Shown here in pieces: positions 19,828-33,871 of a DNA stretch of 64,000 nt. The position numbers were made by a program, and so were the translations under genes. The notes below the pieces were generated by a model. The model did no database searches. It was not told the origin of the DNA and worked only from the letters and a program-made list of their open reading frames with translations. This DNA is from a virus. The stretch's first letter is position 1; every line of letters begins with the position of its first letter. The DNA lies in the IMG/VR virus record IMGVR_UViG_3300044655_002046; one strand, 5' to 3'.

Positions 19828-19945
19828 GTTAGAATTAATCTCAATCCCTAGTAGGGTTTGAGATTCACCATTATCATACTCAACGTAATTGGTTAATAGT
19901 AGGTGTTATTGTGTATTAGTTTTAAACCCTACTAGAGATTGAAAC
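19828..19945 (+). CRISPR. Degenerate repeat-spacer-repeat mini-array, type I-D-like repeats
   Basis: 37-mers at 19828-19864 and 19909-19945 match the Microcystis I-D repeat as I recall it (GTTCCAATTAATCTTAAACCCTATTAGGGATTGAAAC) at 29/37 and 28/37; 44-nt spacer; no cas genes in the window. Confidence 0.6.
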
Positions 19946-20012
19946 TGATTGAATTATGGTAGATTCCCAATCCGAATATTGATAAGATAACTTTTTATTT
20001 AGGAGACACAAA

Positions 20013-20279
20013 GTGATTACTGCAAAACAATTAAAAGAGTTTTTGGCGACCGTTGAAGACAATGCGCTTATTTTTATAGGGAAAAGCGGAGGGATGTCTT
20101 ATGGTTGCCAAGATTTTATGGTTAAGAAGGAATTGTTTATAGAGAAAGAAGACCAGTTTCTTGATTCTCTAATTTGGGACCACGACTTCGATGACGAAGA
20201 AATTGAAAAGCTTGAGAAGGAAGCTATCGAGCGACAAGCTGTCTATTTACAATACTACCCAGATTGGGGAGAAGATTAA
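20013..20279 (+). CDS. Acidic hypothetical protein between CRISPR-like repeats
   Basis: 88 aa, AGGAG RBS, GTG start, AT-rich island. Confidence 0.7.
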   Translation: MITAKQLKEFLATVEDNALIFIGKSGGMSYGCQDFMVKKELFIEKEDQFLDSLIWDHDFDDEEIEKLEKEAIERQAVYLQYYPDWGED

Positions 20280-20293
20280 ATATTAAGGAAAAA

Positions 20294-20330
20294 GAAACAA
20301 TTAAGTTTAAGCTTTATTAGGGATTGAAAC
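20294..20330 (+). CRISPR. Solitary type I-D-like repeat
   Basis: GAAACAATTAAGTTTAAGCTTTATTAGGGATTGAAAC; 29/37 to the recalled repeat, last 16 nt identical. Confidence 0.6.
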
Positions 20331-20342
20331 TGATACTAAACA

Positions 20343-21210: not shown

Positions 21211-21239
21211 TTGACAGGCATTAAGAATTATGGTAAGAT
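21211..21239 (+). promoter_or_regulatory. sigma70-type promoter for tRNA-Tyr
   Basis: TTGACA-17 nt-TAAGAT with extended TG, 12 nt before the tRNA. Confidence 0.8.
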
Positions 21240-21251
21240 AAATCTAAACAA

Positions 21252-21333
21252 GGGTTAGTGGCCGAGTAGTCGAAGGCGACAGACTGTAAATCTGTAGAGT
21301 AATTCCACGCTGGTGCAAATCCAGCCTAACCCA
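21252..21333 (+). tRNA. tRNA-Tyr(GTA)
   Basis: Acceptor GGGTTAG/CTAACCC, anticodon arm ACAGA-CTGTAAA-TCTGT, long variable arm, T arm GCTGG-TGCAAAT-CCAGC; CCA not encoded. Confidence 0.92.
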
Positions 21334-21362
21334 CTAAAAATAATAACCATAGGAGTAAATCA

Positions 21363-21635
21363 ATGGACAAAACAATTACAGTTTATGTCACAAAATACGC
21401 TTTGACAAGTGGCATTATAAAGTGCAATGGAAAAATCTGCCATGGGGTATTTTCCCCGGATAATCCCCGTAAATTTAATATGTTAATGCTAGACGGATTT
21501 ACCTCAAAAGAGTACGTGCTAACGGAAACAGAAGCTCAAAAAGTCTTTGAAGAAAAGAGACTTAAAGCAATTAAACAAACTGAAAGAAAACTTGAAAAAC
21601 TGAAGAATCTAAAAATGCAACTCAATGAGTATTAA
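21363..21635 (+). CDS. Conserved small phage protein
   Basis: GGAG RBS; VYVTKYALTSGI N-terminus and C-terminal coiled coil. Confidence 0.7.
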   Translation: MDKTITVYVTKYALTSGIIKCNGKICHGVFSPDNPRKFNMLMLDGFTSKEYVLTETEAQKVFEEKRLKAIKQTERKLEKLKNLKMQLNEY

Positions 21636-21674
21636 ATGAATTTATTAACTCGTGACTGGTGGCATAATTTAATA

Positions 21675-21874
21675 GGTACTAGAGACGGGAATTGAACCCG
21701 CAAAACTTAATTAAATCTACTCCTGACGAAACGCCCTTCCCTCACTCAATCTTTGCCAAGTTCGGTGGATTCGCAAATTTCAGTTTTGAAACAAAAAACA
21801 AAGGTATTTTTTGCATTAAGTCCCTTTTCGGTTGAAGGCTACGTTTCAGCCTTTAGCTACCAAGCTACTCTAGT
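21675..21874 (-). ncRNA. tRNA-shaped ~200-nt structured RNA with large internal insertion
   Basis: Acceptor ACTAGAG/CTCTAGT+A,CC; canonical T arm GCGGG-TTCAATT-CCCGT; long-range GAAACG/CGTTTC pairing; own promoter. Confidence 0.7.
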
Positions 21875-21880
21875 ATTTCA

Positions 21881-21909
21881 ATTTTATCAGAGACTTCTAA
21901 AATTGTCAA
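21881..21909 (-). promoter_or_regulatory. Near-consensus sigma70 promoter for the tRNA-like RNA
   Basis: Minus strand TTGACA (21909-21904), 17 nt, TAAAAT (21886-21881) with extended TG. Predicted +1 falls at 21874, the first acceptor base. Confidence 0.8.
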
Positions 21910-21926
21910 TCCTTGCATGACTACTT

Positions 21927-22514
21927 ATGTTCTTTATTATTATTCATGGTCTAAGTGGCTCAGGTAAGACTGAAGCCTCTAAGTGTTTATCTGAGTTACT
22001 GGGGGTTGAAGAGATACATCCTATAGCCCCGTGGAAGCGCTTCACAGAGAAGTACTATGAATTGCCAGAGGGGGCCCTTGATACAACAGAATACAAGGAG
22101 TATACGCCCAATGGTATGAATATAACCATGAATCAGTTTATGGTTAACCTCTATCACTTCATGAGAGAGAACGACCCCTACTTCTCTAGTCGCATGATGC
22201 GGACTGAGATACGGCGCCATATCAGCAAGGGTATACCTACTCTTCTATTGTCCCTACGCAACCTAGAGGAGGTAGAGGTAATAGAGAGTATGCTATCTAC
22301 ATTGATTAATAGATGTTGTATAGTAATCAATATAAGCCGCTCGTCTGAGCAGGTACTGAGTAGTGATGTTAACTATCAGGCTATTAAAGACCGTCTGGCT
22401 CGCCTTAATGGGGCGGGCGTTCATTATATAGACATAGTTAATGACTACCGCAGAGTATCAGACTTGAAGAAGGCACTAGAGAGATTGCTTAAGATTTATG
22501 TCAATACTAGATAA
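21927..22514 (+). CDS. P-loop nucleotide (dNMP) kinase-like protein
   Basis: N-terminal IIHGLSGSGKT; ~195 aa. Confidence 0.7.
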   Translation: MFFIIIHGLSGSGKTEASKCLSELLGVEEIHPIAPWKRFTEKYYELPEGALDTTEYKEYTPNGMNITMNQFMVNLYHFMRENDPYFSSRMMRTEIRRHISKGIPTLLLSLRNLEEVEVIESMLSTLINRCCIVINISRSSEQVLSSDVNYQAIKDRLARLNGAGVHYIDIVNDYRRVSDLKKALERLLKIYVNTR

Positions 22515-30289: not shown

Positions 30290-30554
30290 TTGTAACAATT
30301 GGGCTAATAACGATTGGACTCTACGTAATAAGTCGAATATACCTATACTTATTACTAACCCGCCGATTTTACTAAATGGTGATAATCTATACTATCTATG
30401 GGTCTATCGTTACTATCATAAAAGCATGGGTCTCGGGGCTTATATCCCTGAATTGGACAAGTTATATGATTCTATCGACTTGTTTTATTATAAACTATCA
30501 AATTTGTTATATGACTTTCTAGGGGAGGGGGATTATTTTTATGAAGAGGATTGA
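30276..30554 (+). CDS. Array unit (chimeric, long)
   Basis: MKMINCNNWAN...PILITNP...MGLGAYIPEL...YFYEED. Confidence 0.6.
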   Translation: MKMINCNNWANNDWTLRNKSNIPILITNPPILLNGDNLYYLWVYRYYHKSMGLGAYIPELDKLYDSIDLFYYKLSNLLYDFLGEGDYFYEED

Positions 30555-30732
30555 TGACTGGGCTCCGCGTATGCCTATATCTATTACTGATCTGCCCGTT
30601 GACCTAGACAGATCATTAACCAAATTGTATTTTGCTTATAGTCCTAGAAACCTTGTTTATTATAGATTAGTAGTTCTTGTAATATATAGCTTTCTTAATA
30701 GAGAGAACGATTACTTCAATGAGAGTGATTAA
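30541..30732 (+). CDS. Array unit
   Basis: MKRIDDWAPRM...YFNESD. Confidence 0.6.
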   Translation: MKRIDDWAPRMPISITDLPVDLDRSLTKLYFAYSPRNLVYYRLVVLVIYSFLNRENDYFNESD

Positions 30733-31405: not shown

Positions 31406-31550
31406 TAACGATCTCGGGCTTGCTTTGTTTTACAACTTGATTCTGTACAATTGGAATGTGTATAATAAGCTGAAGGGGGCCTCTATACCTGTTAACGCTG
31501 TCAACCTGTTTTATTATAGACTGGTAAATGTATTGGATAACACATTTTAG
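31392..31550 (+). CDS. Array unit (52 aa, not in track)
   Basis: MKMIDNDLGL...LFYYRLVNVLDNTF. Confidence 0.5.
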   Translation: MKMIDNDLGLALFYNLILYNWNVYNKLKGASIPVNAVNLFYYRLVNVLDNTF

Positions 31551-31596
31551 ATGAGAATGAATAAAGATGACATTATACATAAGGACGGTTATTCTG

Positions 31597-31791
31597 GTGA
31601 AGACTATTATATGTGACGAGTTAACTCTACACAATAAACTTAGAGCCTCTATGCTTATTGAGCCTTCCGTTAGGGCAACCGGCTTAGTGTCTAGGTTTTA
31701 TTTAATGAGCAGGTATTACATTGGTTCGTTTTACTCTAGATTATATAGCGCTCTAGATGAGAGTGATTACTTCAATGAAGAATATTTCTAA
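31597..31791 (+). CDS. Array unit (GTG start)
   Basis: VKTIICDELTLHNK...YFNEEYF. Confidence 0.5.
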   Translation: MKTIICDELTLHNKLRASMLIEPSVRATGLVSRFYLMSRYYIGSFYSRLYSALDESDYFNEEYF

Positions 31792-32038
31792 CGATTGTCT
31801 GTTATCTTGGACTTTGAATAATGATTATCTCAATGCTTTGCGCTTGTTTCATTATTATGAAGTGATGGGTTTCGAGATCTATACTCCTAAACTAAGCGAG
31901 TGTTGCGGCTCTATCTTCCGGTTTTACTGTAGATTGATAAATATGTTAGAAATCATCCTAGATGAAGATGATATTTTAGATGAGGGCGATTATTTCGATG
32001 ACTATTATGAGGATAGCTATTTCGATGAAGACTATTAA
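31775..32038 (+). CDS. Array unit
   Basis: MKNISND...YFDEDY. Confidence 0.55.
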   Translation: MKNISNDCLLSWTLNNDYLNALRLFHYYEVMGFEIYTPKLSECCGSIFRFYCRLINMLEIILDEDDILDEGDYFDDYYEDSYFDEDY

Positions 32039-32234
32039 TCATAACGATTGGTCTCTGCTCAATAAGCTTAAGACCTCTATGCTTATTGAGCCTTCCGTTG
32101 GTGAGCTACAGGTGTATTTGTATTTTTTTTATTTTGTTTGTAGTCCTGAGAGAGTCAACCGGTTTTATTATAGGCTGGTAAGCGTGTTATATAACATTCT
32201 AGATGAGGACGGTTATTTCAGTGAAGACTGTTAA
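32025..32234 (+). CDS. Array unit
   Basis: MKTINHNDWSL...YFSEDC. Confidence 0.55.
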   Translation: MKTINHNDWSLLNKLKTSMLIEPSVGELQVYLYFFYFVCSPERVNRFYYRLVSVLYNILDEDGYFSEDC

Positions 32235-32391
32235 TTGTGAGATTTGGCCTTTACACAATAAGCTGGAGGCCTCTATGTTTATACCTGAATCCCCCATTGA
32301 GACAGATGGCTTAATACGCAAGTTTTATAATTGTGATTCTTTTGAACTTGCCTTGTTTTATTACAGATTGGAAGTATGCAATTTATATTAG
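32221..32391 (+). CDS. Array unit (terminal, GTG start)
   Basis: VKTVNCEIWPLHNK...FYYRL. Confidence 0.5.
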   Translation: MKTVNCEIWPLHNKLEASMFIPESPIETDGLIRKFYNCDSFELALFYYRLEVCNLY

Positions 32392-32677: not shown

Positions 32678-33871
32678 GTGACGAGAGAGAATGAACAACT
32701 GATAATGGAGCGGCTAACTATACCAGAGCTATTAAATCTACGGCACGGTACTAATGATTGCCCTGCTTGTGGAGGCCGCGGTAAGCTGAGTGTATATCCA
32801 CACTATATGAAGTGCTGGAGGACTAGTTGTGAGTTGAATACAGGGATGGGCCTGATTAATGCCTGGCGTTGGCATACTAAGCTTGATTATGCTGGCGCTA
32901 TGCGGCAGTTAGAGGCCCGCGCTGGTATACGTCAGGCCCGCGAGGTTATGGATGCTCGCAGTATGATATTAGAGAGCGCTCTAGAGGCCTATCATTATTA
33001 TCTTGATGCTACGCCTGCTGCTCAGGACTATATACTGCGGCGAGGCTGGTCTCTTGATCTAGCTCATAGTATTGGTATAGGGTATGCCCCTCCTGGTGGG
33101 TTACGTCAATTCGATATAGATCATGAGGCATTAGCCCGCGAGGGTCTCATTCAGGAGGACGGTGAGGATTACTATAGGGAACGCATTATATTCCCTATAC
33201 GAGATATACGAGGTCATCTAGTTCATATGGTTGGCCGCTATATAGGTAATAGTGAGAGGGCCCCCCGCTATAAGGATACACGGGCTGTTATTAATAGTAA
33301 GCGCTATGTCTATCTAGAACACTGTCTTAAGGAGTATGCTAGTCATCCATCTCGCGAGTTGTATATAGTTGAGGGCCCGCCTGATGCCACATCACTGGTA
33401 GGTCGTAGTTTACCTGTAGTGGGGCTATTGGGTCTGGAGTATCTATTATGTCACACCAGTAAGTTCAAGCCCTTCCGCCGTATCACGTTTATATTCGACT
33501 CAGATAAGTATAGCGATGACCACCCTACTCATGCCGGTGTATATAAGAGCTGGGTACGTATCATACCTCAGCTAGTTCAGCTGCAGGTTAACTTACCATT
33601 AGTTGAGTTCATGACGTATATGGTTGCTGATTATAAGGACATTAATGAGTGGTTGGTGGCAGAGCCTCGTGTTAATGCTGCTGATACTATTAATGCTAAC
33701 CGTATACCATTCATAGATGATTTACTAGCCCAATGGGGGCCCGACATTAATCATCACGTAGATATACTGCGGGTATTGACTGCCACTCATTCTTCTCTAG
33801 GGCTACTGTCCCCTTATGTAGATAATAAATTAGGGCCCCTTGAATATGCCTCTCTACTATTCGGATCGTGA
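32678..33871 (+). CDS. dnaG: DnaG-type DNA primase
   Basis: Zinc finger CPAC..C..C, YRERIIFPI..GR, TOPRIM YIVEGPPD and FDSD. Confidence 0.88.
   Translation: MTRENEQLIMERLTIPELLNLRHGTNDCPACGGRGKLSVYPHYMKCWRTSCELNTGMGLINAWRWHTKLDYAGAMRQLEARAGIRQAREVMDARSMILESALEAYHYYLDATPAAQDYILRRGWSLDLAHSIGIGYAPPGGLRQFDIDHEALAREGLIQEDGEDYYRERIIFPIRDIRGHLVHMVGRYIGNSERAPRYKDTRAVINSKRYVYLEHCLKEYASHPSRELYIVEGPPDATSLVGRSLPVVGLLGLEYLLCHTSKFKPFRRITFIFDSDKYSDDHPTHAGVYKSWVRIIPQLVQLQVNLPLVEFMTYMVADYKDINEWLVAEPRVNAADTINANRIPFIDDLLAQWGPDINHHVDILRVLTATHSSLGLLSPYVDNKLGPLEYASLLFGS

Follow-up and report, generated by a model that had tools for sequence, protein, structure and literature searches.

What kind of RNA carries the ends of a transfer RNA (tRNA) and, where the anticodon loop should stand, an insert of about 103 nucleotides (nt)? 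The question is raised by a gap at positions 21636-21926 in a 64,000-nt stretch of viral DNA (IMG/VR record IMGVR_UViG_3300044655_002046), referred to below in its whole length as the window, which comes from a relative of the Microcystis phage Ma-LMM01 (genus Fukuivirus). A preliminary description of this DNA had proposed, on the minus strand inside the gap, a tRNA-shaped RNA with its own promoter and an internal reading frame resembling that of transfer-messenger RNA (tmRNA). The neighbourhood of the element is approximately 93% identical to Ma-LMM01, MaMV-DC, MaMV-DH01 and the MaMV-CH/DL isolates, and no annotation is present at the element in any of these records. The analysis points to a gene which is self-contained and horizontally mobile and whose product is a stable, non-decoding RNA with a tRNA frame, in which a tRNA-like shell would present a working insert; as a whole, this reading is given a probability of about 0.5. 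Its core, a functional and trans-acting RNA gene of non-decoding, tRNA-framed type that has spread horizontally, is considered very probable on sequence grounds.

The homologue set comprises 33 distinct variants from approximately 70 loci, collected through three exact-pattern scans of IMG/VR, one metagenome scan, one genome scan and look-ups of neighbouring proteins. Pair and variant counts were made on 32 distinct sequences, and extra look-ups of loci brought no new variable sites. Among the approximately 70 loci from the pattern scans of IMG/VR, metagenomes and genomes, no homologue of less than 93% identity was found, and a blastn search with the region against 50,697 phage records gave matches limited to nine records of the Ma-LMM01 group.

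Promoter and tRNA-like Shell

The RNA gene extends over 198 nt from the predicted transcription start (+1) to the discriminator A (21677..21874, minus strand), with RNA position p corresponding to window coordinate 21875-p. It is preceded by a sigma-70-type promoter (21881..21909, minus strand) with a -35 hexamer TTGACA at 21909-21904, a 17-nt spacer, a -10 hexamer TAAAAT at 21886-21881 and a TG upstream, giving 11 of 12 matches. The promoter is aimed at the first acceptor base, as had been proposed: the predicted +1 at 21874 is that base and lies 7 nt past the -10 hexamer. Both hexamers are kept in relatives, while the spacer and the flanks drift. SigA-type host promoters are used by all expression classes of Ma-LMM01 (PMC5780444). 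No terminator was found after the RNA in the window.

The acceptor stem is formed by ACUAGAG (p1-7; 21868..21874, minus strand) and CUCUAGU (p191-197; 21678-21684), the latter followed by the discriminator A at p198, so that the 3' part of the acceptor occupies 21677..21684 on the minus strand. The description of this stem as a perfect helix of 7 base pairs (bp) is borne out and strengthened by a compensatory change, with pair 6:67 seen as A-U, G.U and G-C; pair 1:72 alternates between A-U and G.U, and pair 5:68 between G-C and G.U. Pair 3:70 is U-A in 30 of the 32 variants and U.G only in a clade with a replaced 3' strand, in agreement with the reported absence of the G3.U70 determinant. An A-C-C had been read after the stem, of which only the first base holds up: the discriminator A (21677) is kept in 30/32, whereas the following CC becomes CT, TT or TC in relatives, which indicates that CCA is not encoded. 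The T arm GCGGG-UUCAAUU-CCCGU (p174-190; 21685..21701, minus strand) is canonical, as had been stated. Its loop keeps U54 U55 C56 R57 A58, and the sole loop change is A/G at position 57.

The D region (p8-26; 21849..21867, minus strand) starts with U8 A9, and the GG at p14-15 is invariant. It can be folded as a D stem of 3-4 bp with a GG-containing loop or as a 4-bp AGCU/AGCU stem with a UGGU loop. The suggested D stem GCTT/AGGC is therefore possible, with its two variable pairs changing only to U.G, although the AGCU/AGCU alternative fits equally well. Between the insert and the T arm lies a variable region of 26 nt (p148-173; 21702..21727, minus strand), for which a weak 6-bp hairpin (p157-172) or a pseudoknot with p54-60 may be drawn; covariation decides neither, and the region as a 'variable arm' has no convincing stem (z = +0.9).

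When introns are allowed, ARAGORN at its default threshold calls the element as a 97-nt class-II-like tRNA with a 103-nt insert after position 34, under the label 'Pro, AGG'. With introns allowed, two calls are made in the 64-kb window (the neighbouring tRNA-Tyr and the element) and none in 20 shuffled windows, which indicates that the tRNA frame is not a chance pattern. Default ARAGORN and the Rfam gathering thresholds return the neighbouring tRNA-Tyr alone and miss the element, and a search of Rfam at E up to 10 gives only chance matches and a 15-nt match of the T arm to tmRNA. One clade of the homologue set (L054, L056, L058, L059, L063 and L040) has an alternative 3' acceptor strand, with CTCTAGTA replaced by CTGGGGAC and the rest of the RNA unchanged (e.g., L054:7562-7759).

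Conservation and Movement between Phage Lineages

The variants are 93-99.5% identical to the copy in the window; in the comparison with adjacent genes the element stands at 94-99.5%, as against 89-92% at their third codon positions. A more direct comparison is offered by a block of approximately 308 nt which is common to two phage backbones, where identity is 96.5% over the RNA, 84% over the promoter and 80% over the 60 nt downstream. Differences within this shared block amount to 7/198 nt in the RNA and 19/105 in the co-transferred flanks (Fisher 4e-5). Judged by these comparisons, the element is a real RNA gene under purifying selection. The decayed tRNA with an insertion, which the preliminary description had named as the alternative, is rejected given the compensatory changes and the strong conservation.

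The second backbone became apparent from the neighbouring genes. Approximately half of the loci are without Ma-LMM01-type neighbours (counterparts of gp160-gp162 and a 173-amino-acid (aa) open reading frame (ORF)); in a second lineage, the RNA follows a gene for a 965-aa primase/helicase-like protein on contigs of 83-88 kb, one of which is estimated to be complete. No cultured relative of this 83-88-kb lineage was found. A megablast search with a 12.6-kb stretch of a second-lineage contig against all phage records showed that it shares with Ma-LMM01 308 nt, consisting of the promoter, the RNA and approximately 60 nt downstream, and that the sequences beyond are unrelated. In the second lineage, a 67-aa reading frame (ORF67; 88-100% aa identity) begins 3 nt past the discriminator. 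Ma-LMM01 keeps 18 codons of ORF67 and its group 18-31 codons, and in the subgroup of the window the frame has been replaced altogether.

The boundaries of the mobile unit are given by sister phages (L070-L075) with an empty site, in which no RNA gene intervenes and the stop codon of the primase gene overlaps the start codon of ORF67 as TAATG (e.g., L071:1501-1704). By this comparison the cassette is a 243-nt insert with the 7-nt direct repeat AGTACCT on both sides, and the final bases of the element, AGTA, belong to this repeat flanking the cassette in the second lineage. Because the Ma-LMM01 block carries scraps of both second-lineage flanks, the likely path leads from an original donor to the 83-88-kb lineage and from there to Fukuivirus, with the RNA alone being kept afterwards. 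Retention of the cassette in two backbones, together with the persistence of the RNA while ORF67 decayed, is taken to rule out both a decayed tRNA and a purely cis-acting leader.

Several further observations concern the flanks of the cassette. ORF67 (MIGQYIPSRYPEKVYRVNSYG...; L018:11092-11295, plus strand) encodes a conserved 67-aa protein with no Pfam match. Where the cassette is present, tRNA-type 3' processing would leave the ORF67 mRNA nearly leaderless; in the clade with the replaced acceptor strand, the ORF67 AUG is preceded, at a distance of 3 nt, by a G-rich patch which might act as a ribosome-binding site. A 90-aa ORF without a Pfam family (21363-21635, plus strand) is found in the subgroup of the window and is absent from Ma-LMM01 and MaMV-DH01, whose decayed ORF67 remnant occupies its place, which indicates that the 3' flank of the RNA gene has been replaced in the window. 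On the other side, a 1.2-kb insertion of small plus-strand ORFs separates the RNA gene from the gp162-like gene in L039 (1000-2400; also in L052, L055, L057 and L060). At its far side lie a duplicate of the promoter and of the first ~35 nt of the RNA and then a strong bidirectional terminator, while an intact RNA copy with its own promoter is still kept beside the insertion. A second shared block (L018:3789-4646, approximately 80% identical to MaMV-DC 31446-32303) holds two tandem PHROG 23556 genes of unknown function and suggests that the 83-88-kb lineage and the Ma-LMM01 group have exchanged DNA more than once.

The Insert and Its Competing Folds

The ends of the insert can be joined by a long helix. 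Its 5' strand (21834..21847, minus strand) consists of GAAACG (p28-33), an internal loop and CCUUC (p37-41), and its 3' strand (21728..21739, minus strand) of GAAGG, a G and CGUUUC (p136-147). Pair 28:147 is G-C in 29 variants, A.C in two and A-U in one, while pair 41:136 is C-G or U.G. The pairing of GAAACG with CGTTTC that had been proposed is thus upheld in part, since the complement is present and 28:147 changes on both sides, whereas RNAalifold favours a competing fold. The hairpin which had been noticed inside the insert is well supported. It is A/U-rich with a variable tetraloop (p61-84; 21791..21814, minus strand; folding energy z = -4.0 against shuffles), its pair 69:76 is seen as U.G, U-A and C-G, and four loop sequences occur. 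It also shows paired deletions, as in Ma-LMM01 and MaMV-DH01, where one A and one U are lost from opposite strands. Pairs changing on both sides are accordingly found in the acceptor (6:67), the hairpin (69:76) and the long helix (28:147).

The hairpin is followed by a conserved and weakly structured segment (p85-135; 21740..21790, minus strand), presumed to be the working part of the RNA, which has five variable sites in 51 nt, no insertions or deletions (indels), and a folding energy no better than that of shuffles (z = -0.33). Two models of the whole have been drawn. The first, in line with the preliminary description, has the D stem, the long bulged helix (GAAACG-UAG-CCUUC with GAAGG-G-CGUUUC) and an optional pseudoknot between p54-60 and p164-170, a pairing that never varies. 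In the second, the D region forms a short hairpin, AGGCU-GAAACGU-AGCCU folds into an anticodon-like hairpin, and ACUUAAU/AUUAAGU closes a giant variable arm. In either model, 99.4% of the alignment cells at paired positions in the 32 distinct sequences can pair.

Reading Frames within the Insert

The preliminary description had placed a tmRNA-like resume site at a GCA codon, opening a tag that starts AKNTFVF and ends in KD before a stop. This frame is open in the window and broken or altered in sense in relatives. The GCA is ACA in 6/32 variants, 1-nt indels in the hairpin break the frame in Ma-LMM01, MaMV-DH01 and L036, and of the changes further along G103U creates a UAA, G112A replaces E by K and G118A replaces G by S. 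The proposed resume codon also falls within the stem of the best-supported hairpin.

A different start-less frame has emerged from the same variation. It covers p101-133 (21742..21774, minus strand; GCG AAU CCA CCG AAC UUG GCA AAG AUU GAG UGA) and would encode ANPPNLAKIE followed by a stop. It is open in all variants, and all four of its variable sites are silent (GCG>GCU, CCG>CCA, UUG>UUA, UGA>UAA), whereas the same four changes are nonsense or missense in the other two frames. The probability of silent changes only is 0.0066 for one frame under the observed mix of transitions and transversions, approximately 0.02 when three frames are allowed for, and 0.053 if only G sites mutate; RNAalifold also accommodates all four changes, in loops or as G.U becoming an A-U pair. 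No start is conserved, the upstream AUG (p59-61) being AUA in six variants and out of frame in three, and C87U, which lies upstream of the ANPPNLAKIE frame, is missense. Since the frame has no conserved start, it must, if it is read at all, be read without initiation, as in tmRNA. These data are suggestive, and the frame is regarded as a lead and not as a finding. The idea of a tmRNA mimic has accordingly changed its footing: a tmRNA-like role survives through a 10-codon frame other than the one first proposed and with weak statistics, the earlier tag having failed.

Comparison with Known RNA Classes

The closest known RNAs are RNA1 and RNA2 of phage T5 and RNAC and RNAD of phage T4. Like the present RNA they are phage-encoded and do not decode, and in each the frame of acceptor and T arm carries an insert at the anticodon loop, although there is no sequence similarity. 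In the T5 record (GenBank AY543070), RNA1 (30501-30644) and RNA2 (32959-33083) are annotated as misc_RNA, 'tRNA-like stable RNA with unknown functions'. In its intron-tolerant mode, ARAGORN fits T5 RNA1 to a Leu frame whose anticodon loop holds a 40-nt insert; RNA2 is read similarly once the threshold is relaxed. Expression is established for T4 RNAC and RNAD, and for decades no function has been known for the T4 and T5 RNAs (PMC3014915, PMC9697503). The T5 and T4 RNAs sit in a tRNA cluster and are cut from a tRNA precursor, whereas the present RNA is a solitary mobile cassette with its own promoter, placed in the Ma-LMM01 group on the strand opposite to the adjacent tRNA-Tyr. Second-lineage phages have 2-3 tRNA genes each, the nearest lying approximately 15 kb from the element in G002, and no tRNA gene was found beside the element in loci of 7-15 kb, save a tRNA-Met approximately 12 kb away in L014. 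Compared with the T5 and T4 RNAs, the insert is larger (103 nt) and includes a conserved unstructured segment and a possible frame, and the D region is not Leu-like.

With tmRNA (SsrA, RF00023), the RNA shares tRNA-like ends, a middle closed by a long helix and the discriminator A, and it has a candidate start-less frame which, like that of tmRNA, begins with Ala and ends in a stop. The tRNA-like domain of tmRNA has no paired D region, and many tmRNA tags start with Ala-Asn. The present RNA has no G3.U70 and is approximately half as long; one hairpin is present where tmRNA has four pseudoknots, the D region is paired, a linker of 26 nt precedes the T arm, and the tag would end in KIE instead of a hydrophobic degron. 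The Rfam tmRNA model scores 13.3 bits, through the T arm only, against a gathering threshold of 47 bits, and the tmRNA mode of ARAGORN makes no call, even at relaxed thresholds. A single hairpin stands at the place of the first pseudoknot (PK1), and PK2-PK4 were not found. Neither SmpB nor alanyl-tRNA synthetase (AlaRS) is encoded by the phages (for AlaRS, Ma-LMM01, MaMV-DH01 and two 83-88-kb records), and no Pfam match to an aminoacyl-tRNA-synthetase family was obtained among the 20 window ORFs scanned. A canonical tmRNA has been rejected on the U-A at 3:70, the sub-threshold Rfam score, the missing ARAGORN call, the missing PK2-PK4 and the lack of a phage SmpB or AlaRS. The earlier statement that the RNA departs from tmRNA in lacking G3.U70 and in being about half its size is in keeping with this result.

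Class II tRNAs (Leu, Ser and bacterial Tyr; RF00005) resemble the shell in several features, namely a 7-bp acceptor, a D stem of 3-4 bp with GG in the loop, a canonical T loop on a stem of 5 bp, an extended stretch from the anticodon stem to the T arm, and a discriminator A. The present RNA differs in having no usable anticodon loop and in having the GG at the start of the D loop, and it is not matched by the Rfam tRNA model (RF00005). A decoding tRNA has been rejected, there being no 7-nt anticodon loop, a candidate U33 that is U in 5/32 variants, and a loop that takes insertions of 1-2 nt. YrlA Y RNAs (RF02553) are also modular, combining a tRNA-like domain with a second domain. The ends of YrlA form a Ro-binding stem and its tRNA-like module is internal, whereas the ends of the present RNA form an acceptor stem. 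No Ro60/TROVE or RtcB gene was found in Ma-LMM01, MaMV-DH01 and two phage records of 83-88 kb; a Y RNA has been set aside on the lack of a Ro60/TROVE gene and of any Rfam match at E up to 10.

Proposed Mechanism and Points against It

In the proposed mechanism, transcription by host RNA polymerase would begin at the mature 5' end or immediately beside it. Host tRNA enzymes, recognising the tRNA shell, would release the RNA from longer transcripts through 3' trimming and CCA addition; the shell would also confer stability and would give the RNA access to proteins that handle tRNA. On its extended anticodon-stem-like helix, the insert would present a conserved and poorly structured strand of about 50 nt, acting in trans during infection. 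The best guess is tRNA mimicry with a cargo that binds or titrates a host factor in the conflict between phage and host, the host being unusually rich in toxin-antitoxin and other defence genes. The division of labour between a shell for maturation, stability and access and a single-stranded segment serving as mimic or sponge in this conflict is put forward tentatively, as a possible and not a probable account. As to the decoy role suggested in the preliminary description, the data speak neither for it nor against it.

A number of points weigh against this reading. Transcription, the RNA ends, CCA addition and stability are all inferred from sequence. A search for target complementarity within the window gave chance 11-mers only, and no binding partner or target was found there. 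Translation accounts better than a sponge role for the silent-only variation of the ANPPNLAKIE frame. As for the architecture, the two fold models are mutually exclusive, fit the alignment equally and lie 4.6 kcal/mol apart, and the fold inference rests on homologues that are all at least 93% identical; at 28:147, a single sequence (L062) speaks for the first model, but a small local hairpin could also absorb its change. Finally, the clade with the replaced acceptor strand comprises six contigs, one of them a phage record estimated to be complete, and its stem is broken; either the acceptor stem is dispensable, or these are dead copies or fresh null alleles.

Alternative Explanations

One rival is a non-canonical, stripped-down tmRNA. 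Charged by a synthetase that is blind to the anticodon, it would enter stalled ribosomes, switch translation to the start-less frame and append ANPPNLAKIE, which lacks the hydrophobic degron usual in such tags; an RNA of this kind would help the phage to keep ribosomes at work in a host with many toxins that cut mRNA. The tRNA-like ends and the mRNA-like middle closed by a long helix, with a hairpin at the PK1 place, suit such an RNA. So does the frame itself, which has no conserved start codon, begins with Ala-Asn as many tmRNA tags do, lies in a segment predicted to be largely unstructured, varies only silently at its four sites, UGA>UAA included (P 0.0066, or about 0.02 over three frames), and is preceded by 16 nt before the GCG that are invariant save for C87U further upstream. 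This must be set against the U-A at 3:70 in place of G3.U70, a tmRNA model score of 13.3 instead of 47 bits that comes from the T arm only, an empty ARAGORN tmRNA mode, and the lack of PK2-PK4 and of a phage SmpB or AlaRS. The paired D region, the 26-nt linker before the T arm, the KIE ending and the natural clade with a broken acceptor stem are equally unfavourable, and the statistics stem from only four informative sites, with P 0.053 under the null in which only G sites mutate and with RNAalifold fitting all four. On balance such a tmRNA is considered unlikely. The same low standing is given to its full form, a new type of minimal trans-translation RNA of approximately half the size of tmRNA, with no alanine G3.U70 determinant and hence another anticodon-blind synthetase, no PK2-PK4 and a non-degron ANPPNLAKIE tag, which would release the phage proteins made from toxin-cut mRNAs instead of having them destroyed and would have spread between unrelated Microcystis phages as the 243-nt cassette.

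The remaining alternatives read the locus as something other than a trans-acting RNA of this kind. A cis element, either a leader that processes or stabilises the ORF67 transcript (a cut would leave CCU-AUG) or a promoter-plus-AT-rich origin element of the replication module, would account for a second-lineage ORF67 that starts 3 nt past the discriminator without its own promoter or Shine-Dalgarno sequence, for the lack of a terminator after the RNA and for a position among replication genes in both lineages. It is nevertheless quite improbable, as ORF67 has decayed to 18-31 codons or is gone in the Ma-LMM01 group while RNA and promoter are still 96-99% conserved, sister phages express ORF67 without the RNA by way of the primase-stop overlap, and a DNA element would not be expected to show compensatory pairs at the RNA level, a canonical T loop or a tRNA elbow. 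A conventional micro-protein of 24 codons ending in ANPPNLAKIE could be read from the AUG at p59-61, which, in the window and in most variants, has the same phase as the silent-only frame and is preceded by AAGGGA-CUUA with a Shine-Dalgarno AAGGGA. That AUG is AUA in 6/32 variants and is put out of frame by indels in Ma-LMM01, MaMV-DH01 and L036; it also lies at the base of a stable hairpin, and the N-terminal half changes freely (tetraloop changes, C87U), leaving this explanation with very little likelihood. An intron-interrupted tRNA gene, spliced to a class-II-like decoding tRNA of approximately 97 nt, is exactly the model built by ARAGORN with introns allowed, and group I introns do occur in tRNA genes of cyanobacteria. 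The novel intron that had been suggested is hardly credible all the same: the would-be U33 is U in 5/32, G in 21/32 and A in 6/32, the loop region accepts insertions of 1-2 nt, the insert of 103 nt is far below group I size, is more conserved than the putative anticodon loop and matches no family of introns or ribozymes at E up to 10, and the phages have no RtcB-type ligase. Just as remote is a functionless pseudogene, that is, a tRNA which decayed or was hit by a small insertion. It would explain the lack of decoding, the failure of every tRNA and tmRNA model to accept the RNA and the clade with a broken acceptor stem, and it is contradicted by an RNA that evolves 4-6 times more slowly than the co-transferred flanks and the synonymous sites of its neighbours, by a consensus promoter in every variant, by compensatory stem changes and by acquisition as a cassette that was retained in two unrelated backbones.

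Significance

Phage tRNA-like stable RNAs have been known since the T4/T5 era, and to our knowledge none has an assigned function. The present gene makes an unusually clean evolutionary case for selection on such an RNA for its own sake, in the form of a promoter-plus-RNA cassette which moves between unrelated phages and of a near-invariant RNA whose co-transferred neighbour decays. With Ma-LMM01 and Microcystis aeruginosa NIES-298, a cultured system with existing RNA-seq of the infection is at hand, in which the purpose of such RNAs is directly testable. If the silent-only frame is true, the RNA would be the first tmRNA-like RNA outside the alanine/SmpB design. Microcystis is a toxic bloom former that is exceptionally rich in toxin-antitoxin genes, and a phage RNA that targets translation, or a defence directed at tRNA, would be relevant to the control of blooms.

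Genomic Setting and Other Observations

In the window, the gap which holds the element is bordered by the 90-aa ORF on one side and on the other by a P-loop protein (21927-22514, plus strand), the counterpart of Ma-LMM01 gp162, beyond which follow the counterparts of gp161 and gp160 (helicase), also on the plus strand. The P-loop protein is present in close relatives only, and no distant RNA loci were reached by its synteny. The synteny of ORF67 likewise yielded no distant homologues of the RNA: the 159 nt available upstream of the 66%-identical ORF67 in L069 contain no copy of it, and ORF67 homologues at 90% mark empty sites. The tRNA-Tyr gene (21252-21334, plus strand), which lies downstream of the 173-aa ORF, is served by a promoter of its own, TTGACA-17-TAAGAT (21211-21239, plus strand); tRNA-Tyr and the tRNA-shaped RNA form convergent units, each separately promoted.

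Two loci of the set, L035 and L036, are on contigs filed in Crocinitomicaceae and 'Acidimicrobium' metagenome-assembled genomes; they carry the RNA cassette with ORF67 and look like mis-binned phage contigs. The third match of the genome scan is an ordinary tRNA-Thr and has been discarded. A likeness between CRISPR-like repeats (19840-20333) and the 3' end of the element (21668-21695), with a 9-nt seed TACTAGAGA and 71% of 28 nt, has been put down to coincidence, as about ten such seeds are expected by chance in 2.3 kb. Elsewhere in the window, an RRXRR-domain (PF14239) protein at 5427-6575 leads to loci in Microcystis and Gloeothece chromosomes.

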